Assembly (NCBI RefSeq): GCF_030028105.1
Contig: NC_092375.1
Span: 182,191,250-182,255,249, forward strand
DNA length: 64,000 nucleotides
Source: Mobula birostris
Taxonomy: Eukaryota
Direction: 5' to 3'
Made by a program: the position numbers and the translations under genes. Numbering within the stretch: the first letter of the stretch is position 1; each line of letters begins with the position of its first letter. This document shows positions 2,121 through 63,830 of the stretch, one piece after another. Below the pieces are notes generated by a model. The model saw only the letters and a list, made by a program, of their open reading frames with translations. It did no database searches and was not told the origin of the DNA.

Positions 2121-5100
2121 CAAGTCGTCACTTTTTATTGTCATTTCAACCATAACTGATGGTACAGAACATTGTAAAAATGAGACAATGTTTTCCAGGA
2201 CCATGGTGCTACATGAAACATTACAAAAACGACACGGAACTATGCAAGAAAAACACAAAAAACTACACTAGCCTACAGACCTATCCACGACTGCATAAAG
2301 TGCACAAAACAGTGCAGGCACTACAATAAATAGTAATAAATAATAAACAAGACAGTAGGCACAATAGAGGGTGTAGTAGGTTGGTGTCAAGCCAGGCTCT
2401 GGGTATTGAAGAGTCTGATGGCTTGGGGGAAAAAACTAACTCCCACATCATGAAGACCCTGGAGAGACTTGTTCTGGAGCTGCTCCGGCCTATGGTCAGG
2501 CCACACTTAGATCCCCTCCAATTCACCCACCAGCCCCGACTAGGAGTTGAGGATGCCATCGTCTACCTGCTGAACCGTGTCTACGCCCACCTGGACAAGC
2601 CAACGAGCACTGTGAGGGTCATGTTTTTTGACTTCTTCAGTGCGTTCAACACCATCCGCCCTGCTCTGCTGGGGGAGAAGCTGACAGCGATGCAGGTGGA
2701 TGCTCCCCTGGTGTCATGGATTCTTGATTACCTGACTGGCAGACCACAGTACGTGTGCTTGCAACACTGTGTGTCCGACAGAGTGATCAACAGCACTGGG
2801 GCTCCACAGGGGACTGTCTTGTCTCCCTTTCCCTTCACCATTTACACCTCGGACTTCAACTACTGCACAGAGTCTTGTCATCTTCAGAAGTTTTCGGATG
2901 ACTTTGCCATAGTTGGATGCATCAGCAAGGGAGATGAGGCTGAGTACAGGGCTACAGTAGGAAACTTTGTCACATGGTGTGAGCAGAATTATCTGCAGCT
3001 TAATGTGAAAAAGACTAAGTAGCTGGTGGTAGACCTGAGGAGAGCTAAGGTACCGGTGACCCCTGTTTCCATCCAGGGGGTCAGTGTGGACATGGTGGAG
3101 GATTACAGATACCTGAGGATACAAATTGACAATAAATTGGACTGGTTAAAGAACACTGAGGCTGTCTACAAGAAGGGTCAGAGCCATCTCTATTTCCTGA
3201 GGAGACTGAGGTCCTTTAACATCTGCTGGACGATGTTGAGGTTGTTCTACGAGTCTGTGGTGGCCAGTGCTATCATGTTTGCTGTTTTGTGCTGAGGGTA
3301 GCAGACACCAACAGAATCAACAAACTCATTCGTAAGGCCAGTGATGTTGTGGGGTTGGAACTGGACTCTCAAGGTGGTGTCTGAAAAGAGGATGCTGTCT
3401 CAGTTGCATGCCATCTTGGACAATGTCTCCCATCCGCTACATAATGTACTGGTTGCGCACAGGAGTACATTCAGCCAGAGACTCATTCCACCAAGATGCA
3501 ACACAGAGCAGGATAGGAAGTCATTCCTGCCTGTGGCCATCAAACTTTACAACTCTTCGCTTGGAGGGTCAGACGCCCTGAGTCAATAGGCTGGTCCTGG
3601 ACTTATTTCATAATTTACATATTACTATTTAACTATTTATGGTTTATTACTATTTATTATTTATAGTGCAACTGTAACAAAAATCAATTTCCCCCAGGAT
3701 CAATGAAGTATGACTACGACTATGACTATGACTACATAGTCTGGTTGTGAGAGCCCGAATGCTTCGGTGCCTTTTGCCAGATGGCAGGAGGGAGAAGAGT
3801 TTATATGAGGGGTGCGTGGGGTCCTTCATAATGCTGTTTGCATTAGGGATGCAGCGTTTGGTGTAAATGTCTGTGATGGCGGGAAGAGAGACCTCGATGA
3901 TCTTCTCAGCTGACCTCACTATCCGCTGCAGGGTCTTGCGATCCGAGATGGTGCAATTTCCGAACCAGACAGTGATGCAGCTGCTCAGGATGCTCTCAAT
4001 ACAACCTCTGTAGAATGTGGTGAGGATGGGGGTGTGGGAGATGGACTTTTCTCAGCCTTCGCAGAAATTAGGGACACTGCTGGACTTTCTTTGTTGTGGA
4101 GCTGGTGTTGAGGGACCAGGTGAGATTCTCCGCCAGGTGAACACCAAGAAATTTGGTGCTCTTAACAATCTCTACGGAGGAGTCGTCGATGTTCAGCGGA
4201 GAGTGGTCACCTCGTGTCCTCCTGAAGTCAACAACCATCTCTTTTGTTTTGTTTACATTCAGAGACAGGTTGTTGGCTCTCCACCAGTCCATTAGCTGCT
4301 GCATCTCCTCTCTGTATGCTGACTCATCATTCTTGCTGATGAGACCCACCACAGTCGTATTATCGGCGAACTTGATGATGTGGTTTGAGCTGTGTGTTGC
4401 AGCACAGTCGTGGGTCAGCAGAGTGAACAGCAGTGGACTGAGCACACAGACCTTGGGCACCCCCTGTGCTTAGCGTGATGGTGTTGGAGATGCTGCTTCC
4501 AATCTGGACTGACTTAGGTCTCCCAGTCAGTAAGTCTAGGACCCAGTTGCAGAGGGAGGTGTTCAGGCCCAGTAGGCTCAGCTTTCCAATCAGTTTCTGA
4601 GGAATGATTGTGTTGAATGCTGAACTGAAGTCTATGAACAGCATTCGAACGTACCTGTCTTTTTTGTCCAGGTGGGTTAAGGCCAGGTGGAGGGTGATGG
4701 CAATGGCATTGTCTGTTGAACGGTTGGGATGGTACGCGAACTGCAGGGGGTCCAGTGAGGGGGGCAACAGGGTCTTGATGTGCCTCATGACGAGCCTCTC
4801 GAAATACTAGATGATGATGGATGTGAGTGCAACGGGACGGTAATCATTGAGGCAGGACACTGAAGACTTCTTCGGCACAGGGATGATGGTGGTGGCCTTG
4901 AAGCAGGTAGGAATGATGGTGCTGCTCAAGAAGATGTTGAAGATGTCAGTGAGAATATCTGCTAGCTGGTCTGCACATCCTCTAAGCCAGGAATATTCTG
5001 CCAGGAATATTGTCTGGTCCAGCAGCCTTCCGTGGGTTGACCCTGCGCAGGGTTCTCCTCACATCGGCCACGGTAAGACATAGCACCTGGTCATTTGGAG

Positions 5101-5210
5101 GATGGGTAGTCTTCCTCCCCACCATGTCATTATCCACCTGAAAACCGAGCATAGAAGTTGTTCCGTGTATCTGGGAGGGACGCATCACCTGCATAGTCAG
5201 GCGATGTTGA
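2121..5210 (-). mobile_element. Rex-Babar-like LINE inserted in the RTE (itself interrupted at 2438-3733)
   Basis: [30 protein letters not shown] and IIKFADNTT on the minus strand. 3'UTR and polyA signal at 2121-2437. Possible 5-bp TSD tgctt/tactt. Confidence 0.88.
2438..3733 (+). mobile_element. 5'-truncated Rex1-like LINE with (GACTAT)n tail
   Basis: SHIMKTLERL, FFDFFSAFNTI, GAPQGTVLSP and LQKFSDD motifs; tail tatgactacgactatgactatgact. Confidence 0.9.
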
Positions 5211-5796
5211 TACTTAGGAAGCTGGATAACTTCAGCTGGCAGATGCGACACAGACATCAAAAGAAGAATAGAGATGGCAAAAGACACCTTTATGAGAATG
5301 AAGAGTATACTGACCAATACTAAACGAGACATGACAACCCACCTCAGAGTACTGAAATGTTACGTTTATCCAGTTATGTTATATGGCTCAAAATGTTGGG
5401 CAATATCTAGAAACATGAGGAAAAGAATTGAAGCAGCAGAGTTATGGTTCTTGAGGAGGATGCAAAGAATATCATGGACGAAATGATTATCTAATGAGAT
5501 GTCATGAACAGAGCAAACACAAAAAGAGGAATAATGTATGAGATCATGAAAAGGCAACGTAACTTCATTGGACATGTGATTAGGAAAGAGGAGTTAGAGT
5601 GCATGGTAATTATGGGAAAGATTGAAGGGAAGAATGCAAGAGGAAGACAAAGACAAATGATGATGGAGACAGCCGCCAGAGAACTGGAAATGAATACCAA
5701 TGAATTGATCCACTTGACCCGAAACAGGAGTATGTGGGCCATGGTCGTCAAAGCTCAAACCAGGCACTGCACCTGATGCTGATGATGATGATGATG
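5211..5796 (+). mobile_element. RTE-clade LINE, 3' part with (GAT)n tail
   Basis: Resumes at YLGSWITSAG, the continuation of ...IQNFC at 2115. Contains GKIEGKNARGR and ends in gatgatgatgatgatg. Confidence 0.9.
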
Positions 5797-8636: not shown

Positions 8637-10263
8637 ATATGCTTGGTAGATGGGCAGAAAATACAGTTATATTGTAGAAAGAGTAAGGAAGTTTTCAAAT
8701 GCAATATTTTATGACCAACTTGGTTTTCAGAATGATATTTCATTCGTTGGAGCAAACTTTCTGGCTTCTATCAGTAATTAGCTTCTGATGCTATTGGGTT
8801 TGCTGACTATGAAATTCTAAACTCAGATGAAGAGCTGAAGCCGTATCAGATATAAATAGCCATAAATAGTGCCCCTAAAGGGAGGTTATACTGTAACTAC
8901 CCAATCTTCAATGACTATTACGCTTCTCTGTTTATTCTCCATGGCAAGTTTGGCCGCCAATACCCACTACTCGAGTGGTGGGTCCCCCTTCCCTACCAAT
9001 AAGACAGCACTTCCAGCTAACAAAGTAGATTAAAACACAGTTCATTTATTTTCCGTGATTTGCATTTAAATCCATTTAAAATTCAGAGAATCTCTATCTT
9101 AAACATTTCCAAATTGCAAACAATTTCTAAAACACAAAGCATTTCCTAATCATAAATCATTCCTAAAACAATTTCTATAAACTAAAAAGTTATCCCACGA
9201 TGCAGATGAACAAGTTATCTGTTGCAGAATCCAAAGCGGGAAGAATGGATTCTAACTCAACCCGTATTTCTTCCACATTTCTTCTTGATGCCCCTTACTC
9301 TATTCCTATCATTTGGATGACTTCACACACGTTACATTTCCTCAGATAGCTTTTTAACACAGTCTAAAAGCATCTTGGAGACATACACCTAAACTAATGT
9401 TCAGAGTTCACTATTAATGCTGTAAATGCTGTGAAGTTAATTTCTTTGATTACATAAAGCCTCAGAACTATAAACTCATCAGTTATTGATATACTAAATG
9501 ATTATCCATCTGTTCTGCAAGCTTCCATGAACTAAACAACTTAAGAGTCAGCTTGTCTGTTCGAAACAGACCAAAATAAATAATGCATTGTTTTAAATTA
9601 CACCTTGACTGGCAATAAAGAAGGTGCTGTCAGCTAACATTTTACTTCTCGCTGATAGAGTATCTGTGCTATAAACAGAGCTTTCTTGCAAATCTGTGTT
9701 ATTAACGTCAAGCTGATTTACATATCAGCAATTTACATTTTAAGAACTGAAGACTAACTCCCATTTACAAACAGAAGTTAAACAAAGCAATATTATTTGG
9801 AAGTTTACTTACAACTGTTTGTGATCTAACAAATGGTAGCTGCTGTGTTTAGAAAGCCGAGATTAGTAAACAAACCAGGAATGAATATCCATCACAAGCT
9901 GACATGTAGTATACAAGGTTAGAATAGAAAGTGAAGTGTTAGAATACTCTCTAATGCACAATAAACAATTGTAACTCCAATATACAGAATTTTAAACTTA
10001 TCATAATAATTAGTATTCGGGGAAAAAAGCAGAGAATTTTACATGCATACCTGAAAGTTTGCAGGTACTAATGGGTTAGGAAATACTGTAATTTCAGAGA
10101 TTGGCAGCAGAAAATTGAAAGTATAGACACACCATGAAAAGATAAAACTACCATGCTCTTCAATATTAGTTCATGGATCTTAGAACCATGAATGACAGAT
10201 CAAAATATTATTCCAATTGTTAAGTGACTGGGAGCTGTGGAAGAAGAGTTAACTATTCATGTA

Positions 10264-10688
10264 CAGTACTATGCAAAAGTCTTGGGCACATATATATAGC
10301 TAGGGTGCCTAAGACCTTTGCACAGTACTGTATTTGTTAATGTGGAGCAGAGAGCGAGTTCGTAAATCTGGAGGGAACAAAGGATATTGGGAAGGGTGAG
10401 GGTGGAGTGCTACAGGAGGGGTATGTTACAGGTGGCAGAGGAGTGCCAGAGGTGGGGTGGTGGGTGAGGGTGTGACATGGCCCGAGACACCCGGCAAGGT
10501 CATTTGATTCCAAACAATTGATTTACAGAATGCCTCTGGTGCTTCCCACTCTCTCCCCTCTTCCTTCCCCTTTTCCCAACCATGATTCTCCTCTCCCTGT
10601 TTTTTTGCAACAACAACAATACCATGGAATCCATAAAAGTTCTACAGTACTGTGCAAAAGCTATATAAACGTGCCTAAGACTGCACAC
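10264..10688. mobile_element. Composite Tc1/mariner-type MITE with palindromic TIR modules at both ends
   Basis: TA|CAGTACTATGCAAAAGTCTTGGGCAC...GTGCCTAAGACCTTTGCACAGTACTG|TA module at 10264-10330 and a second decayed module from 10645. Interior is the reverse complement of 23190-23455. Confidence 0.8.
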
Positions 10689-15894: not shown

Positions 15895-16530
15895 GAAAAG
15901 CAGAAAATACTGGAAACACTTATCAGGTCAGCCAGCAATCATGTAAAAAGTAGTGTTAACGTTTCAGTTTGATGACCCTCTGTCAGAGCTGGAACAGTAA
16001 GAAAATATGGAAGGGCTGTTGGAAAGGATGGGGAATATTGCTGCTCGGGTGCGGCCAAGAATGCAGAGATGATCAGTTATTGATGAGGTTACTTGATTGA
16101 TGGATTAATAAAATGTAATTAGGGAGAAAGAAAAGGCACATGTAAACGTTACAAAATGTCGGACAAGCAGTATGTAGCTACAAGAACTTTTATCTCATTA
16201 GGCATTGTTAATTATTTGAATTCATAATGCAGATGGATAATCTTAGCAGAGCAACACAAACAAAATGCTGAAGAACTCAACAGGTCAGGCAGCACCTACA
16301 GAAGTGAATCAACAGTGGACATTGGAAGCTGAGGTTCTTCCTCAGGACTGCAGAGGAAAGGGGAAGACACTAACTTGTTTTCTTACTGTCTCAGCTTTGA
16401 CGAAGGGTCACCAAACTGCAACATTAACACTATTTTTACCTGATGACCGTTTTCAGTATATTCTGCCATCTTCCCACTTCCTTTCCAGTCCTAATGAAAG
16501 GGCTTGGCCCAAAATGTCGGTTGTTTCTGC
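15895..16530. mobile_element. Decayed Penelope-like terminal fragments with degenerate hammerhead motifs
   Basis: Several diverged copies of the atgctggag-aactcagcaggtcaggcagca and ctgatgaagggtc...gaaacgt module in both orientations. Confidence 0.6.
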
Positions 16531-20384: not shown

Positions 20385-21054
20385 GTTTGGATTAACCGTG
20401 TTACGATAATTTGGAGAAAAATACATTGAATGTCCTAATAAAGACATCTAATATCTGTCCAATGCAATAATTTTCCATGCATACCTGCTGATCTCTCGTG
20501 GGGCTTAACATGGTGATTCACGTGATGTGTTGATTTGTAAGGTTAGGAATGTATCATGGAACACAAATCTACACATCCCTAAGTAGTCCATTAAACAGCA
20601 CTTACTTGTTGCCAGAGCTGTACAGGGCAAGTTAAATTAAAATTGAATGTTTTCTGTTCAAACTACATGCCAAACTAAATAGTTATTGGCTCCTATTCTT
20701 CTGAAATAAATGTGGTTCTTTATTGTAATCATTGCATAATAGGCAACCAAGATTCTGATTAGTGTGTAATGAGAAACATGTAACTGGCGTAACAGTATTA
20801 CAACTCTAAATTATTTGTATTATCTCTTCTTAAGAGAAGTAATCAATCTACCATAAACAAAACTAATGCAACAAATTTGGCATTATTATGAAGGAAAAAT
20901 TTGAAAGAGGACATTTAACATAAGATATAACTGCCTTATGTAGATTTCTCTTGTAGCATTATTAAGTCAATTTAAGTATTATTTAGGAACATGACATAAT
21001 AAAATATTGGTTCATTAAAATGAGGCAGATTTAATATACGAGAGAATTTCATTG

Positions 21055-21445
21055 TAGACACAAGAGATTCTGTAGATGCTGCAAATTTTGAGCAACAGAC
21101 ACAAAATGCTTGAGATACTCAGCAGGTCAGGCAGCAACTATGGTGAGAAATAAATAGTTGACGTATTCGTAGCTCGGATTGAGGTGTTCACTGAGCTTGG
21201 CAATTAGCCTGCAGACGTTTCATCACCAGTCAAGGTGGCATCCTCGACTGCGCACTAAGGATGTCACCTCAACTAGTGATGAGACGTCGGCCATCTAACT
21301 GCCAAGCTCGGTGAACAGTACAACATCAAATACTCAGTGTTTCGGACCGATGATGTGTCTATGCCAAAATGTTGACTGTTTATTTCAGATGCAGCCTGAC
21401 CTGCTGTCCCTCCAGCATTTTGTGTGTATTGCTCAAAATTTCTTT
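21055..21445. mobile_element. Nested Penelope-like palindromes carrying hammerhead-derived motifs
   Basis: Outer inverted arms 21083-21164 and 21369-21441; inner inverted arms 21185-21317 centred on TGCGCA at 21249-21254. Confidence 0.8.
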
Positions 21446-22469
21446 GCAGTTATTCACTTCACTGACACTTTGAATTTTTTCCTATTTTCAAACACACAAG
21501 GAATTTTTTTCTCCTGTCCTCACAGAAGTCATGTTCCACAGCACACACCTTCCACATTATTCACATATTTTCCCCACTTCCTCTGAAACGGATTGATGGA
21601 ACAACAGCCACTGCTCGATGCCTTCCTCAGTATAGAGCAGTGGAGTATGGTTGGGAGGAAGTGATCAGCACTAGAGAGCTGGGTACTGACAAAACTTAGG
21701 GTAGAGGGTAAAACAGCTGCAAAAGATAATCCAGTACTCTCATTTACCAGCGACACTGACCACCCATGCAACCCTAACTTCTGCAAAGTAATCTTTTCCT
21801 ATGTGTTCTGGCATCTGCTGTAGCCACGAGTTTGAGGGTCAGTAATCATAGTTTGACTAGCTCGCTAGTCAATGAAATTCTGCCTTGTCTTTCAGCAACA
21901 TAACTGTTCTAAAAATTTCACTTTGGAGCAACTTCACAGATATTTCTGCTTTTAATCTGTGAATTGTCCCTCTGTAAAATTGGCTTGCCTCAAGTAAGAA
22001 ATGCAGACACAGATCATGTGTTCAGCAGGGTCAAGGTGTAGGTAAAAAGCAATGCACTTGGCAGATATAAGAGCATATCTTATGTCCCCAACACTTCTGG
22101 CAGGAGTTGACTAAGTTGCTCTACAGGGATAATCTAGAGTTTGGTGTCATGGTTCACAGGTGGAGAATAAATACCTAGATACTTTCTCAGAGACGTCTGT
22201 CATCCACCAAATTACACCTCAGGTTACTTTGAACAAAGATCATGTTTAGGAAGATTCAGCACCTACATCTTGAGGGACAACTTAATTTCACATGATGAAC
22301 AATATTATAACCTCTTGCTGTGCCTGATCAGTAACAACAATTATCCCACATTTATATCCTGGCTTTAACAGGGGACCATGCTTCACAGGAGAGCTACCAA
22401 ATAAATAATTGGAACCACGGAGATATTAAAGTAATTGGAAGTTTGGTTACAACTTGTAGAACAATTATC

Positions 22470-22743: not shown

Positions 22744-22988
22744 CCCAGTATCATTAATTTGAAGTTCCAAAGGAGAAATTTTCAAAGCAGAGTAGTTTAT
22801 GGAGGTAATTCCACAAATAAGAATATTTGGAACTGAAACGACTACCACCAGTCATAATGGGTTAGTGATTAAATCTTTAGACTTGAGTGGGACAGTTTAA
22901 AATTTACTGTGCTGTTGGTGTCTGTGTAGTAGCTATATCTTATATACAGTATACACACACAGACCCCCACACACACACATTAAATGTA

Positions 22989-23895
22989 CAGTACTGTGCA
23001 AAAGTCTTAGGCACATATATAGCTAGGATGTTCAAGATATTTGCACGGTACTGTAATTTTATGTATTGCACTGTACTGCTGCCACAAAAAAAAAATCATG
23101 AACTATGTGAGCGATGATAATCCTGATTCTGATATGGGTCTCTGTTGTGGTCTGAGTGGGATGGGGGGCAGGGAGAGGGGATCATAGTTGGGAAAAGGGG
23201 AATGGAGAGAGAAGGGAGCAGGAAACTCCAGGGAGGTATTTTGTATTAATCAATAAACCAGTTGTTTGGAATCAAATAACCTTGCATGGTGTTTCAGGGC
23301 TGGGTGTGTCTGCAGCCACACCACCCCCCACCCCGGCACGTCTCCTCTGCCATCTGCCCCACACCCCTCCCGCAGTGCTACACCCTCACCATTCCCAAAA
23401 GCCTTTGCTGCTGCCTGATTTACAAATTCGCTCTTCGCTCCACATTGACAAATATAAACACGACACGACCCACCCAGCCAACAGACTTTTCATTCCTCTT
23501 CCCTCCGGGAGAAGGCCCAGGAGCTTGAAGACTCATACGACCAGATTTGGGAACAGCTTCTTTCCAACTGTGATAAGACTGCTGAACAGATCCTAACCCA
23601 GATCCGGGCCGTACCCTCCAAATATCCAGATCTGTCTCTCGGTTTTTTTTACACTACCTTACTTTCCATTTTTCTATTTATGATTTATAATTTAAATTTT
23701 TAATATTTACTAATTTTTACTATTTTTAAATTTAATATTTGTAATCCGTGGAGCAGGAAGCGCAGAATCAAATATCGCTGTGATGATTGTATGTTCTAGT
23801 ATCAATTGTTTGGCGACAATAAAGTATACATAGTATGCAAAAATTCTTAAGCACCCTAGCTACAAATATGCACCTAAGACTTTTGCACAGTACTG
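22989..23895. mobile_element. Composite Tc1/mariner-type MITE (second copy) with an internal Rex 3'-end insertion (~23459-23830)
   Basis: TA|CAGTACTGTGCAAAAGTCTTAGGCAC ... CACCTAAGACTTTTGCACAGTACTG|TA with palindromic modules at both ends. The insert encodes THPANRLFIPLPSGRR...RFGNSFFP. Confidence 0.85.
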
Positions 23896-23949
23896 TATAA
23901 AGTTGAGATGCATTCTATATTGAGTTAATGTTTATAGATAAGCGGGGAG

Positions 23950-25366: not shown

Positions 25367-26290
25367 GAACACACACGAGATGCTGGAGGAACTCAGCAGG
25401 TCATGCAGTATCAATGGAAATGAATAAACAGTCAATGTTTTGGGCTGGACACTTCTAGAAAGGAAGGGGAAAGAAGCCAGAATAAGCAGTTGGGGAGGGG
25501 AAGGGATACAAGCCAGAAGGTGATAGGTGAAGCCAGGTTGGTGAGGAGGAAATGAGAAGCAGGGAGATGATAGAGGGGAAGGTAAAGGGCTGGAGAGGAA
25601 GGAATCTGATAGGAGAGGAGAGTGGACCATGGGAGAAAGGGAAGGAGGACCGATACAAGGGGGAGGTGATAGGCAGGTGAGGAAAAGAGGAGAGGTGAGA
25701 GGGGAGTAGTAGTGGGAATGGAAGAGGGAAAATTACTGGAAGTTGAAGAAATCAATGTTCAGGACATCAGGTTGGAGGCTACCCAGATGGAATATGGTGT
25801 TATTCCTCAAACCTGAGAGTAACCTCATAGTGACAGTAGAGGAGGCCATGAACTGACGTGTCAGAATGGAAATAAGGATAGGAATTAAAATGGTTGGACA
25901 CAGAAATACTGGTTGGACACTGAGAAATACTGATTTTTGCAAATGGAGCAAAAAATGCTCAACAATGTGGTCCCCCAATCTACATTGGGTCTCACCAATA
26001 TAGATCAGACTTCATCGGGAGCACCAGATACATCAGATAATCCCAGTAGATTCACAGGGAAGTGCTGCCTAACCTAGAAGGACTATTTAGGGCCCTGAGT
26101 GGAGGTGAACGGGCAGGTGTAGCACTTCTGCTTACAGGCATAAGTGCCAGGAGGGAGATTAGTGAGGAGGGCCAAATAGTCAAGGGCATCATGGAGGGAG
26201 CAATCTTTGTGGAAAACAGAGCAGGATTGGAGGTGGGGGTGGTAAAGGTATGGCTGGTGGTAAGATCCTGTTGAATGACGTGCTGGATGC
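25367..26290 (-). mobile_element. Penelope-like element 3' region: GIY-YIG endonuclease remnant plus terminal repeat
   Basis: Frameshifted CYTCPF..GPK.SF.VRQHF...YIGETQ..LGD.IVEH...IFHLGSLQPDVLNIDFFNF, followed by a pyrimidine-rich UTR and the decayed hammerhead module. Confidence 0.85.
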
Positions 26291-26505
26291 AAAGGCTCAT
26301 GGGGTGGTAGGTGATTAATGTATTAATAATGTCAGCATACATATGAACAGGACAGCTGGTGGGCATTTCAATGGAGCAGCAACACAGTCTCAGGGGCAAA
26401 AAGAGTTTTCATAGATTGCCACGGAAGAACAACTGAAATAGCAGATATCCTGAGGAACCCATTTCCAAAACTAAAAACACATGGTCATTAATATACACCT
26501 TAATA

Positions 26506-27854: not shown

Positions 27855-28600
27855 AGGACTAGAATATAAAATCAACGATATAATGTTGAGGCTTTATAAA
27901 GAACTGGTATGGACTCACTTAGAGTATAGTGAGCAATTTTGGGCCTGTTATCTAAGAAGGGATATGCTGACATTGGAGAGGGTTCAAAGGAGGTTCACGA
28001 GATGGATTCTGAGATTGAAAGGCTTGTCACATGACAAACGTTTTATAGCTCTGGTCTGTACTCACTGGTAGTCAAAAGAATGAGGGGTGAACTCATTGAA
28101 ACCTATTGAATGTTGAAAGAAACTCAGCGGGCCAGGCAGCGTTTATGGAAAAGAGTAAGCAGTCAGTGTTTCAGGCTGAGACCCTTCAACGGGACTGTCT
28201 TGGACTGAAACATTGACTGTTTACTCTGTTCCATAGAAGCTGCCTGGCCTGCTGAGTTCCTCTAGCATTTTGGATGCGTTGTTTGGATGTCCAGCATCTT
28301 TATATTTTCTCGTGAATGGACACGGAAAGGTTGTTTCCTATCATGGAGGAGTCTAAGACCAGAGGACACAGCCACAGAATAGAGGGGTGTACTTTTAGAA
28401 TGGAGACAAGGAAGAACTTCTTTATCCACAGGCAGCTGTGGAAGCCAAGTTACTTAGAGCAAAGGTTGACAGATTCTTGATTAGTCAGGGCATGAAAGGA
28501 TACAGGGAGAAGGCAGGAGACTGGAGCTGAGAAGGAAATGGCTCAGCAATAATGAAATGGTGGAGTAGACTTCTTCTAGTTCTCCTATATCTTATGATCT
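27855..28600 (+). mobile_element. CR1 3' fragment interrupted by a Penelope-like palindrome (28112-28314)
   Basis: LYKELVWTHLEY and LERVQRRFT motifs; inserted inverted arms aactcagcgggccaggcagc / gctgcctggcctgctgagtt. Confidence 0.8.
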
Positions 28601-45964: not shown

Positions 45965-46560
45965 AATGGGACTTCCTAGTGGCCAAACATTTCAATTCCG
46001 ATTCCCACCCTTGTTCCACAAGATGATCCATGGCCTCATCTTGGCACAAGAGGAGGCCACCCGGATGGTGGAGGAGCCGCACCTTAAATTCCATCTGGGT
46101 ACAGTACCCTCAACCCTGATGGCATGAGTATTCATTTCTCCTTCCAGGGAATAAATTTCAGCCCCCTTCCCTTCTCTATTTCCCACTCTGACCTCTTACT
46201 TCTTCTCACCTGCCTATTACTTCCCCCTGGGTCCCCTCCTCCTCTTTCTTCAATTGTCCACTCTCCACTTCTTTCAGATTCTTTCTTCTTTGCCCCTCAA
46301 CTTTTCCCACCCACCTGGCTTCACCCATCAACTTCTGGCTCGCCTCTGTACCCTCCCCCTACCCTTTCATTCCGGCGCCTTCCATTTCCGTCTCAGTCCT
46401 AAAGAAGGATCTCGGTCGACTGTTTACTCTTCTCCATAGATACTACCTGACCAGTTGAGTTCCTCCAACACTTTGTGTGCGCTATTGACTTCAACTGGTA
46501 ACTTTGTTTCCTACTCTGTGGGCACTGCATTTACTGAGCACTTCCTGTTTTTATTTGAGA
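45965..46560 (+). mobile_element. Penelope-like 3' region (GIY-YIG C-terminus + decayed hammerhead module)
   Basis: VAKHFNS...HGLI...RMVEEPHLKFHLG...PDGMSI, then pyrimidine-rich UTR and cagtcctaaagaaggatctcggtcgactg. Confidence 0.8.
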
Positions 46561-58060: not shown

Positions 58061-58589
58061 TGACGTGAAAAATGTTGAAACTCTGTGAAAATAGAATGAC
58101 ATGACTTATCTTTAACAAATCCATGCTGGCTTTCTTACATCAAACCACACTTACCAAGATAATTGTGAATATTGTCCCTGACTACTCCTTCAGCATCAGA
58201 ATCAGGTTTATTATTACTGTACTGACGTATGCCATGAACTTTGTTGTTTTGTGGCAGTACAGTGCAATACATAAACTATACTAAACATTACAATAAGAAA
58301 AATATATAAAAGAAAATTTGAAATGTAATGTAAAAATGGAGCAAAATCATGCGCTAGTGTTCCTGGGTTCAGGAACATTCAGAAATCTGAATAGTAGAAG
58401 GGAAGAAGCTGCTGATGAAATCTTGAACGTGTGCCTCTGTTGGTAGTAATGAGAAGAGGGCAGATCCTGGGTGGTGGGGATTCTTAATGACAGGTGCTGC
58501 CTTTTTAAGGCATCACCTTTTGAAAATGCAACACACATCAAAGTTGCTGGTGAACACAGCAGGCCAGGCAGCATCTCTAGGAAGAGGTA

Positions 58590-58627
58590 CAGTCAACGTT
58601 TCAGGCCGAGACCCTTCGTCAGGACTA
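58590..58627 (-). ncRNA. Minimal type I hammerhead ribozyme, inverted copy
   Basis: UAGUC-CUGACGA-A-GGGU(CUCG)GCCU-GAAA-CG-UU^GACUG; core intact, GUU triplet, G-U closing pair in stem II. Confidence 0.65.
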
Positions 58628-59149
58628 ACTGAAAGAAGAGCTAGTAAGAGATTTGACAGTGGGAAGGGGAGGGAAGATCTGAAATGACCACACATTTTAA
58701 TTCCACGTCCCATTCCCATTCTGATATGTCTATCACGGCCTCCTCTACTGTAAAGATGAAGCCACGCTCAGGTTGGAGGAACAACACCTTATATTCCGTC
58801 TCGGTAGCCTCCAACCTGATGGCATGAACATTGACTTCTCAAACTTCCGCTAATGCCCCACTTCCCCCTCGTACCCCATCTGTTATTTATTTACATACAC
58901 ACATTCTTTTTGTCGCTCTCCTTTTCTCCCTCTGTCCCTCTCACTATACCCCTTGCCCTTCCTCTGTGCTTTCCCCCCTCCCCCTTTTCTTTCTCCCTAG
59001 GCCTCCTGTCCCATGATCCTCTCATAACGCTTTTGCCAATCACCTGTCCAGCTCTTGGCTCTATCCCTCCCCTTCCATTCTTCTCCTATCTTTTTGGATC
59101 TCCCCCTCCCCCTCCCACTTTCAAATCTCTCACTAGCCCTTCCTTCAGT

Positions 59150-59187
59150 TAGTCCTGATGAAGGGTCTCGGCCCGAAACGTCGACTG
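59150..59187 (+). ncRNA. Minimal type I hammerhead ribozyme (Penelope-type)
   Basis: UAGUC-CUGAUGA-A-GGGU(CUCG)GCCC-GAAA-CG-UC^GACUG: intact core, stem I, stem II with tetraloop, and a palindromic ACGU stem III suited to dimer formation. Predicted cleavage after 59182. Confidence 0.8.
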
Positions 59188-60242
59188 TACCTCTTCCTAG
59201 AGGTGCTGCCTGGCCTGCTGTGTTCACCAGCAACTTTTATGTGTGTTGCTTGAATTTCCAGTATCTGCAGATTTCCTTGTGTTTGACCTTTTGAAAATGT
59301 CCTCAATGGAGGGGGTGGGGGTCTAGTGCCTATGATGAAGCTGGCTGAGTTTACAACTCTCTGCAGCTTTTTCTAATCCAGTGTAAAGGCTCCCCCATTC
59401 CAGATGGTGATGCAACCAGCTAGAATGCTCTCCACAGTATAGACTGAATCTCTTCAAAGTCGTAATAGAATATAGCCACTGCTGTGCCTGCTCGGTAATT
59501 GCATTAATATGTTTGGCCCAGGATAGGTCCTCAGAGATGTTGACACCCAGGAACTTGAAGTTGCTCACCTCTCCACTGCTGGCCCCTCAGTGAGGATTGG
59601 TGTGTGTTCCATCGGCTTCACCTTCCTGAAGTACACAATCAATTCCTTAGTATTACTGAGCTGAGTGCAAGGTTGTTGTTGTGGCAGCATTCAACTAGCC
59701 GATCTACCTTAAACATGAGAAAATCTGCAGATGCTGGAAAGAAAGAAATAATAATAATAAATAAATAAACAATAAATATTGAGAACATGAGGTGTCCTTG
59801 AAAGTGAGTCCATAGCTTATGTGAACATCTCAATGATGGGCAAGTGAGGTTGAGTGAAGTTATCCCCTTTGGTTCAAGAAGGTTGAGGGGTAATAACTCT
59901 TTTTGAAACTGGTGGTGTGAGGACTATTGTACCTTCTTCCTGATGATGGATGCTGCTTTCCTGTGACAGTGTTTCATGCAGAGGTGATGTGCTCAATGGT
60001 TGGGAGAGCTTTACCTATAATGTGCTAGGCTGTATTCATTACTTTTCGTAATGTTAAGGTATAAGAAAATTCTGCACCCTAAGCAGGCTAACTTCCTAAG
60101 AGATGTAAAATAAATGTTTAATATCATTTTAGCATGATTTTTTGTCTTTTAAAATATTCCAATATGTTGGAAAATAATTTATAGGCCATGATTTCCAGCC
60201 ATTCTCCAATGCAAAAAAAAACATTGATTTAACAGCCAGTCA

Positions 60243-60600: not shown

Positions 60601-61226
60601 GCCTACTCACCTGTCTATCATCTCTCCTTCATGCCCCTCCCCCTGGCCCATGTACTTCTAAACATCTGCAGATTTTATCATATGTTAGATATTTTGATTG
60701 TTTACATGTAAATAACACGAGACATAATTGATTAGAGTTACCCAACTTTTTTTTCCCCTTCGCTTCAAAGAAGTTTATCATTGGTTTGAACTTTAATTGA
60801 TATGTTTAATATTTTGGAGAAAAAATCTTTTTCAAGAACATTTCACATGCTCCTCCTTTATAGACTCTTGTAAAAAGCCATCAAAATACAAGGAATTTTA
60901 ACTCCTTACATGTAAAACGAGAGGATGGAATTACTACCCAACAAGCGAGAAACATTATTTTACTGATGGTATACCTTACTTGGGTAACCTTAATTCTGCA
61001 GCAGTCTGTGCGCAGTTAAAAGTTTATTGAAAGCATTCCCTTTCATGCACTTGAAGGCGGATTAGTTGCAGACATGAGCAATAAATTGTAATGCTCCACT
61101 TATGAAGTCAATGTTAGTAATGGTTTAATGAACACAGTACATTCATCATCACCCTGATGTGCATAATACTCCAACACTGTCAAACTGACCATTTACCTGT
61201 ACTGCAAACATCAATCTTCACACCAA

Positions 61227-61368
61227 ACAAAAGGAATTCTGCAGATGCTGGAAATTCAAGCAACACACATAAAAGTTGCTGGTGAACGCAGCAGGCCAGG
61301 CAGCATCTCTAGGAAGAGGTGCTGCCCGGCCTGCTGCGTTCACCAGCAACTTTTATGTGTGTTGCTTG
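61227..61368. mobile_element. Penelope-derived fold-back mini-element with 14-bp TSD
   Basis: ~56-bp arms with 2 mismatches around an AGGA loop; TSD aatcttcacaccaa at 61213-61226 and 61369-61382. Confidence 0.92.
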
Positions 61369-61411
61369 AATCTTCACACCAACTTAGTTTGCACATGCAT
61401 ATAAGATGAGT

Positions 61412-61817: not shown

Positions 61818-63830
61818 CCATTGAATAAAATCAGGCCGAAAATTAACCTTTTTCTAAGGTTCAACCCGATTGAAAGCCTTCTCAGCGTCTAAAGATATCA
61901 GACATTCTGATATCTCCTTAGAAGGAGAATAAATAAAATTTAATAAGCGACAAGTATTAAAGTGGGAATATCAATTTTTAATAAATCCAGTCTGACCATC
62001 AGAAATGATAGATAGTAAAATATTTTCAACCTTACGGGCCAAAACTTTGAATAGAACTTTAGTATCAACATTAAGTAAGGAAATTGGTCTGTGTGAAGAG
62101 CATTCATATAACCATATAACAATTACAGCACGGAAACAGACCATCTCGGCCCTTCTGGTCCGTGCCGACTCTTACTCTCACCTAGTCCCACCGACCTGCA
62201 CTCAGCCCATAACCCTCCATTCCTTTCCTGTCCATATATCTATCCAATTTAACTTTAAATGACAGCATTGAACCTGCCTCAACCACTTCTGCTGGAAGCT
62301 CCTTCCACACAGCTACCACTCTCTGAGTACAGAAGTTCCTCCTCATGTTACCCCTAAACTTTTGCCCTTTAACTCTCAACTTGTGTCCTCTTGTTTGAAT
62401 CTCCCCCACTCTCAATGGAAAAAGCCTATCCATGTTCACACTATCTATCCCCCTCATAATTTTAAATACCTCTATCAAGTCACCCCTCAATCTTCTATGC
62501 TCCAAAGAATAAAGACCTGACTTTTTCAACCTTTCTCTGTAACTTAGGAGATGAAGCCCAGGTAACATTCTAGTAAATCTTCTCTGTACTCTCTCAATTT
62601 TGTTGACATCTTTCCTATAATTTGGTGACCAGAACTGTACACAATACTCCAAATTTGGCCTTACCAATGCCTTGTACAACTTCAACATTACATCCCAACA
62701 CCTATACTCAATGCTCTGATTTATAAAGGCCCGCATACCAAAAACTTTCTTCACCACCCTATCCACATGAGATTCTACCTTCAGGGAACTATGCACCATT
62801 ATTCCTAGATCCCTCTGTTCTACTGCATTCTTCACTGCCCTACCATTTACCATGTATGTCCTATTTTCATTAGTCCTACCAAAATGTAGCACCTCACATT
62901 TATCAGCATTAAACTCCATCTGCCATCTTTCAGCCCACTCTTCTAACTGGCCTAAATCCCTCTGCAAGCGTTTAAAACTTACTTCATTATCCACAACTCT
63001 ACCTATCTTAGTATTATCTGCATACTGACTTATCCAATTTACCATCCCATCATCCAGATCATTAATATAATTCAGTTGGGTTCTTATTCTTTTTAAGGAT
63101 AAGTGAAATAGAGGCTTCATAGAAAGATTGCGGCAACCTACCCAACTTAAATGAATCCGAAAAAATTGAACATAAATGAGGTATAAGCAGTAAGGAAGAT
63201 GCCTTATAAAATTCTACAGAAAATCCATCAGGACCCGGAACCTTCCCGGAGTGCAACAAGCGTACAGCCTCGGCAATTTCCTCATTAGAAATGGTTGATC
63301 CAACTGTTTACGGTTATCAACAGGAAGTGTAGGAATGCTTAGCTGGTCTAAAAAATTATTCATGATAGTATTATCTTTAGGAGGGTCAGAACTATAAAGT
63401 TTAGAATAGAATTCTCTGAAGCTATCGTTTATTTCTGAATGGTCAATTGTCCTATTACCATTTACTTTTACAAATTTCTTTAATTCGCCGTTTAGCTATA
63501 AAGGTTTTTAATTGGTTAGCCAGTAATTTACCTGTTTTGCCTCCATGAATATAAAGTTGACTTTTATCTTTTAGGAGTTGAGTTTCAATGGGATAAGTTA
63601 AAAGAAGATCACATTTAGTTTGAATTTCAACACACCTTTGATATAAAATAGGATCTGGAACTAAGGCATACTTTTGGTCTAGTTGTTTCAACTGATTAGC
63701 TAACTCAATTCCCTCTTTATTAGCTTTCTTCTTGACACTTGCAGTATATGAAATAATTTGTCCTCTAATATAGGCCTTAAAAGCATCCCATATAATAAGA
63801 CTAGAAGTCTCTTCCGGTGTATTCTCTTAA
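61818..63830 (-). mobile_element. L1-clade LINE ORF2 fragment split by CR1
   Basis: WDAFKAYIRG, SGKVPGPDGFSVEFYK, KNPTE|CSSHRPISLLNVD, QTGF and SLDAEKAF motifs. Confidence 0.88.
62107..63069 (-). mobile_element. Young 5'-truncated CR1 with an uninterrupted ORF2 C-terminal frame
   Basis: Open frame from YINDLDDG through LVRPNLEYCVQFWSP to the stop; 5-bp duplication attca (62102-62106 and 63070-63074). Confidence 0.93.

Follow-up and report, generated by a model that had tools for sequence, protein, structure and literature searches.

A putative Penelope/Poseidon-type palindrome nested in a Neptune-like palindrome in the genome of Mobula birostris

Structure of the locus

The window, by which we mean the whole 64-kb stretch of Mobula birostris DNA that was analysed, contains at positions 21055–21445 two palindromes, one inside the other. 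An inverted-repeat search of the window gives inner arms at 21185–21244 and 21258–21317, which are 82% complementary over 60 nt. They are enclosed by outer arms at 21083–21167 and 21366–21441; there are three outer arm pairs in all. The alignment score of the inner arms is 89, against a maximum of 48 among 2000 shuffles, and the complete 391-nt stretch folds at z = -12.2. The components of the locus are given in Table 1.

The first-pass annotation of this DNA had described an outer palindrome split at its core by an inner one, with an insert at about 21165–21337. The nesting is real, but the host core has been partly duplicated rather than simply cut, because positions 21328–21340 duplicate positions 21152–21164. 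The left end of the insert stays at 21165; its right end moves to 21327, since the following 13 bp are the second copy of the target duplication. The sequences quoted for the two inner arms were found again on re-reading.

Table 1. Components of the nested palindromes, with their positions in the window
Feature	Positions	Strand	Observations
Outer target-site duplication, left copy	21045..21057	.	11/13 match to 21437–21449, chance 7.8e-5 per position
Outer (Neptune-like) left arm with tail of ~30 nt	21058..21164	-	73% match to the best outer copy, 59140–59285; its end is the 3' part of the outer hammerhead core
Inner target-site duplication, left copy	21152..21164	.	Outer-family sequence, including the cleavage triplet and a helix I strand
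Inner left arm	21165..21245	-	Tail-bearing end; internal deletion of ~11–12 nt; ATG at 21241; hammerhead without C3 and U4; tblastn matches to P0017 and P0052
Inner right arm	21246..21327	+	Native leader (likely); hammerhead 21252–21291 (G5A, A14G and a helix I change in this genome); ATG at 21261; short tail-less end
Inner target-site duplication, right copy, decayed	21328..21340	.	8/13 in the window; 10/13 with the letters of organisms B and E
Rest of the outer left-arm hammerhead (GAAA and 3' strand of helix II), up to the centre of the outer palindrome	21341..21350	-	Sequence; same as the continuation of other outer copies at 21158–21162
Outer right arm, degenerate hammerhead, tail-less end	21351..21436	+	69% match to 59140–59285
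Outer target-site duplication, right copy	21437..21449	.	Pairs with 21045–21057

A degenerate hammerhead pattern matched both inner arms with 3 mismatches each and nothing else in the window, with 0 matches in 100 shuffles; it was derived partly from these arms, so that it is informative only on the absence of a third copy. A pattern scan and BLAST gave no second copy of the inner family in the 64-kb window, nor does the window contain a reverse transcriptase (RT) of this family. An Rfam scan of the window at E values up to 5 gave 18 matches, none of them to a hammerhead family. All are hairpin-driven matches to microRNA families, far below gathering scores, and we reject a microRNA reading.

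Limits of the insert

The insert comprises 163 bp, with an ambiguity of 1–3 nt at either end from microhomology. The chance of the 8/13 match between its flanking 13-bp copies is 0.008 per position, in a register set beforehand by the outer sequence, which resumes at 21341. A G at both 21333 and 21336, as read by organisms B and E (see below), raises the match to 10/13 (chance 0.00013). The duplication is weak in this genome by itself and depends on these two letters. Both copies have a T where the consensus of the outer-family loose ends has a C, which fits a mutation of the target preceding the duplication.

The minus strand to the right of the insert keeps the host GAAA, cleavage triplet and helix I strand contiguous, though decayed; to the left there is only a partial duplicate of the host hammerhead. 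When the insert and one copy of the duplication are excised, the locus fits the outer reference with a score of 82 and 5 gaps; excision of the other copy gives 73. The cut of the first-pass annotation gives 75 with 8 gaps, so the gain of the corrected cut is modest.

The limits of the host can be defined in the same way. Position 21058 is a common terminus of the outer family, with loose ends in 355–453 contigs per run, and the tail of the outer element is found on the left side only. Three other outer palindromes were tested: two are flanked by perfect 14-bp duplications and are younger, and one, at 28118, has no convincing duplication.

The motif TGCGCA had been taken as the centre of the inner palindrome. 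We reject it as a symmetric axis, since the leaders in Clonorchis and Opisthorchis point to native right-arm sequence. The 8 nt preceding the right-arm core are those found in one Clonorchis hammerhead row in the available part of PMC4209133 (Fig. S3), and the leader peptide reads NCALM in two Opisthorchis gene models against DCALR in the window. Judging from these sequences, TGCGCA likely belongs to the right arm by origin, and the core of the left arm is likely truncated.

The outer family

The outer copy at 58725–58850 has a 95% match to a protein of Mobula hypostoma and an 82% match to a protein of Hypanus sabinus. These outer-type proteins contain the C-terminal part of the RT and a GIY-YIG region with a Pfam score of 20.9 (cut-off 22.6), and that of Mobula hypostoma has the motif YIDD; a 42-aa outer peptide gave no Pfam match. 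A CX2-5CxxC linker is present in protein P0001 at position 236, and the window copy 25736–26318 matches the linker region. In the available part of PMC8557442 this linker is given for Neptune and Nematis. The outer family resembles the Neptune clade described there by the CX2-5CxxC linker before GIY-YIG: it appears to be Neptune-like, as judged by a motif which is common with Nematis. P0001 is only 36% identical in the RT stretch to P0052, a relative of the inner family described below, so the two families are distant.

Other outer copies in the window are in variable states of conservation. The stretch 58515–59299 is a young insertion, about 760 bp long, whose arms stand head to head within a perfect 14-bp duplication; it has a near-intact hammerhead at 59155–59182 and the C-terminus of a GIY-YIG ORF (95% to the Mobula protein). 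The palindrome at 61213–61382 also has a perfect 14-bp duplication; being centred downstream of the hammerhead, it has no core. A longer decayed copy, 25368–26333, retains the region which codes for the CxxC linker and for GIY-YIG and matches P0001 by tblastn (E 2e-28), and in the copy 46415–46478 some 9 nt are missing from the hammerhead core region. At 15900–16030 and 16378–16450 there is a variant terminal repeat whose hammerhead-like stretch is spaced differently; it is interrupted by an ordinary outer copy (16247–16370), a second case of nested Penelope-type ends.

Abundance of the two families and age of the nesting

Contigs from four runs (X3, X5, X13 and X14, from organisms A, B, D and E) were mapped on positions 20750–21750 at 80% likeness. 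Run X3 may derive from the same source as the window and is not independent of it. In this run the depth rises from about 9 in the flanks to as much as 17,448 in the inner family (21192–21225) and to 703,581 in the outer family (21090–21123); summed contig depth is not a copy number. The inner family is high-copy and the outer one is far commoner.

One contig of organism E runs through 21117–21750 with 84 other letters and 6 gaps, and it continues over 289 nt of the left flank, where it differs by 21 letters and has 7 gaps. In organism B one contig covers 21202–21423 with 9 differences. The nesting predates the splits from B and E, because contigs of both organisms carry it. Distances to the contig end suggest that the copy in E keeps G5 and A14 in its right arm. 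Organism D has no contig across the right junction among the rows listed.

The hammerhead of the inner family

The first-pass annotation had proposed that the inner element carries a different hammerhead with a longer stem II, and the letters found in the majority of the family agree with it. Among the rows listed, the majority has all 10 core positions (CUGAGGA / GAAA) and a GUC cleavage triplet, so that an intact core does exist in the family. Helix I has 3 of 3 pairs, helix III is palindromic (ACGT) and helix II has 6 of 6, its closing pair being scored as G-U with the window letter at 21280; there is an extra nucleotide at 9/10.1. The majority letters restore G5, A14, both strands of helix II and helix I. 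At this locus, as had been noted, both arms are mutated, each retaining 8 of the 10 core positions.

In the available part of PMC4209133 the consensus of the minimal hammerheads (min-HHRs) of metazoan Penelope-like elements is CUGANGA, of which CUGAGGA is a permitted form. The inner family resembles these type I min-HHRs in its CUGANGA core, the extra nucleotide before helix II, G at 10.1, the palindromic helix III and the short helix I; it has a G at the variable position 7, and both of its copies at the locus are mutated. Its majority sequence is identical to two Clonorchis sinensis rows of Fig. S3 at 49 of 57 and 46 of 52 nt, counted by hand; the other 54 of the 56 rows are less close, as judged by eye. 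One of the Clonorchis rows is tied to a partial Cercyon element in Table S1 of that paper, and a Cercyon label for the inner family would derive from this one entry. The inner family differs from the 56 rows, where cartilaginous fish are absent, by its presence in a ray-type vertebrate genome.

Folded as monomers, neither arm gives a hammerhead shape nor does better than its shuffles (z = 0.51 and -1.06). We predict that the ribozymes at this locus are inactive: their cores are mutated, a min-HHR requires a second unit in tandem, and any transcript would pair each arm with its antisense copy. We propose that the hammerheads are here passengers of the pseudo-LTR.

Protein relatives of the inner family

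An ATG opens helix II of the inner hammerhead, so that the ORF starts inside the hammerhead-bearing repeat, and the inner arms encode the N-terminus of a Penelope/Poseidon-type ORF. A word-based protein search with the two arms gave nothing at E values up to 10. A profile search with the same arms, with X at the stops, gave 47 proteins at E values up to 0.001. Of these we identified 33: 16 are from Opisthorchis, 14 from Clonorchis and one from Echinostoma, while two have no organism label. Trematode gene models are thus 31 of the 33 and vertebrates are absent (0 of 33). Pfam families were found in two of the 47 proteins (a kinase and a CUB domain) and retroelement domains in none.

By tblastn the arms match residues 1–24 of protein P0017, and the left arm also matches residues 2–21 of P0052. 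P0017 leads in turn to P0052, which has 832 aa and is 64% identical to it over the aligned region. P0052 has an RVT_1 domain (E 3.5e-10) and the motif YVDD; the Neptune-type CX2-5CxxC linker is absent, and a GIY-YIG-like motif is found at the C-terminus by pattern, with no Pfam match. A parent-type ORF can therefore be named through P0017, in relatives rather than in this genome's own copy. From these sequences the inner family appears to be an endonuclease-bearing (EN+) Penelope-like element of Penelope/Poseidon type, with its nearest named relatives in liver flukes. The two hammerhead-bearing Penelope-like families which the first-pass annotation had suggested would then be a Neptune-like outer family and a Penelope/Poseidon-type inner one.

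No inner-family stretches were found in pattern scans of metagenome, viral and genome contigs (0). Scans for related loci with P0052 and P0017 confirmed 0 of 10 and 0 of 95 pattern matches.

In ten of the 47 protein models, as in the window, an antisense arm is followed by a centre that varies and then by a sense arm. The inner family makes this kind of stub routinely, because these models read through the same micro-palindrome. Many Clonorchis and Opisthorchis "hypothetical proteins" (among P0005–P0051) have the same Penelope N-terminus, so these gene models were likely built on repeat stubs.

Origin of the nested insertion

We consider it likely that ordinary target-primed reverse transcription brought a 163-bp head-to-head stub of Penelope/Poseidon type into the older Neptune-like stub, and that the host ribozyme was no particular target. 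The parts which are directly supported are the duplication, the structure of the arms, the core of the family majority, the protein relatives and the presence of the nesting in organisms B and E.

In such an event the GIY-YIG endonuclease of the inner element would nick both strands, with a stagger of about 13 nt. On the minus strand the nick would fall just before ATT, in the AT-rich run found 8–9 nt beyond the cleavage site of the host; on the plus strand it would lie inside the host GAAA-C, where there is no ATT. Either 3' end would then serve as primer for a short cDNA starting at one of the two internal sites which bound the tail, and the tail would be present on one arm only because each cDNA begins at a different one of the two start sites. 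Both cDNAs would stop near the 5' edge of the hammerhead and join head to head; repair would then yield the 13-bp duplication. The nick and priming steps are borrowed by analogy from a different element, and the contigs revealed no empty site.

Similar structures have been described. The available part of PMC3846280 reports head-to-head inverted pseudo-LTRs with a tail at one end, duplications of 8–10 bp and Penelope elements inserted within Penelope. The locus resembles these endonuclease-bearing units, including Pen2a in Pen3, by its inverted pseudo-LTRs, one-sided tail, duplication and nesting. It differs from them in three features: both elements are terminal stubs with no RT, the duplications have 13 bp instead of 8–10 bp and it is the hammerhead region of the host which has been struck.

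The anole Poseidon protein, according to the portion of PMC11167929 available, cuts and extends both strands and prefers ATT or AT-rich DNA; two RT starts bound its tail and ribozyme cleavage is not required. The ORF of this element begins at helix II, with its start codon 26 bp before the cut. In the inner element the cleavage site is found 25 nt past the start codon. The inner family is thus like the Poseidon element PAc of Anolis carolinensis in the start of its ORF at helix II, a cut 25–26 nt past the codon, two termini which bound a tail and an AT-rich target. This likeness concerns the features described in that source, and an activity of the inner family is putative. The 13-bp stagger, the tail on one arm and the arms which end at the 5' edge of the hammerhead fit a two-primer model of Penelope integration.

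Alternatively, the inner palindrome might itself have been mobile, a non-autonomous element of MITE-like or retrozyme-like kind, instead of being built at insertion. It is indeed small, palindromic, flanked by a duplication and high-copy. Its ends are unequal, with a tail on one side only, its centre is asymmetric and the centres differ among the ten fluke models which read through it. The depth also falls at the centre, from 17,448 at 21192–21225 to 986 at 21260–21293 in X3, partly through the mutations of the right arm, and there is no tandem array as described for retrozymes in the available part of bioRxiv 10.64898/2026.07.22.740005. We find movement as a unit very unlikely. A non-LTR retrozyme is rejected: the arms stand head to head on opposite strands, with no second copy in the window.

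The first-pass annotation had also raised the possibility that one family targets the core of the other or recombines with it. In favour of recombination or a template switch at the shared GAAACGTC core are the presence of this 8-nt core in both families and a left junction within the outer core. A crossover in the core would place the junction in the inner core as well. Instead, the insert ends with a tail end and a short end, which lie 49 nt (left) and 39 nt (right) downstream of its own cleavage sites, and a 13-bp duplication of the host flanks it. Recombination at ACGT is ruled out because the insert ends at its own termini and not in the core; we reject a mechanism which the positions of the junctions already contradict and which we regard as extremely improbable.

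Targeting would mean that the inner endonuclease prefers a site in the outer terminal repeat, either the AT-rich run past the cleavage site or the ACGT core, and that such nestings are enriched genome-wide. The depth at 21336 is 8.78, 13.3, 0 and 7.7 in X3, X5, X13 and X14, which corresponds to one contig in X3, X5 and X14 and to zero in X13. At the adjoining arm end, 21299, it is 455–769. The right junction is therefore not repeated, which argues against a preferred site. Outer copies which diverge from the window at 21158–21162 also speak against it, since they continue into an uninterrupted core (292–432 contigs per listed row). In the window, 9 of the 14 outer matches span an uninterrupted core, one of them being the right arm of the nested host itself; the other five are the host left arm, two tail fragments and the two arms of a core-less palindrome.

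One nick inside the host GAAA-C would suit targeting, and there is a possible second junction. A joint of 21152 with 21330 on opposite strands is found in one contig each in X3, X5 and X13 (organisms A, B and D), thus in three of the four runs, with a short side of 30–31 nt, among the 15 of 159 joints listed. The joint may mark another inner-family end at the same AT-rich position of the outer element; the test is weakened by clipping and by the shortness of the contigs. Two events fall within chance: if there are 8 cores in every 64 kb and the inner copies number 2,000, a figure which is a depth ratio and not a copy number, the nestings expected by chance are 2.0 for an 8-nt target and 5.2 for a 21-nt target. 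With 500 inner copies the expectation is 0.5 to 1.3.

Sequence-targeted Penelope-like elements do exist, in 28S rDNA of spike mosses and in microsatellites (PMC8557442, in the part available), and the anole Poseidon protein nicks its own pseudo-LTR region in vitro, as stated in the available text of PMC11167929. At this locus the one ambiguous second junction is the only positive support for targeting, with a right-junction depth of one contig or none and about 2–5 nestings expected by chance, and we consider such a preference unlikely. It would be a surprise if one ribozyme-bearing element really targeted another; the evidence leans against it. Ordinary target-primed insertion remains our preferred reading. 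The nesting itself then matters little: it is a textbook insertion in an abundant repeat and could serve at most as a dated marker for related rays.

A fluke-like family in a ray

The structure, the type of ribozyme and the nesting are already known. In the open-licence literature we found no printed account of a fluke-like Penelope family in a ray.

A fluke-type Penelope may have been transferred horizontally between the ancestors of rays and their trematode parasites and then amplified to thousands of copies before the split of organisms A, B and E. We put this forward tentatively, as a possibility which is somewhat doubtful. In its favour are the nucleotide identity of 86–88% to the Clonorchis hammerheads, leader and 3' flank included, as compared with the rows in the available part of PMC4209133, and the 31 trematode proteins among the 33 identified, with no vertebrate. 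Against it, the stretch compared has only about 55 nt and is doubly constrained, as ribozyme and as coding sequence; it is identical at 14 of 17 positions even between P0017 and P0052. Furthermore, gene models of vertebrates usually mask repeats, and the protein library presumably over-represents fluke gene models built on repeats. A high-copy fluke-like Penelope in ray genomes would be a candidate for horizontal transfer between host and parasite. A preference of the transferred family for a site beside the resident Neptune hammerhead appears improbable.

Other repeats in the window

A family of palindromes of about 75 bp, 84% alike, is found at 10258–10337, 22984–23058 and 23826–23897, each adjoining a longer repeat. 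Decayed fragments of RT-bearing non-LTR retrotransposons of several kinds occupy positions 834–1969, 2330–3022, 3650–5359 and 62182–63213; by their resemblance we take them to be RTE-, Rex/L2- and CR1-like.
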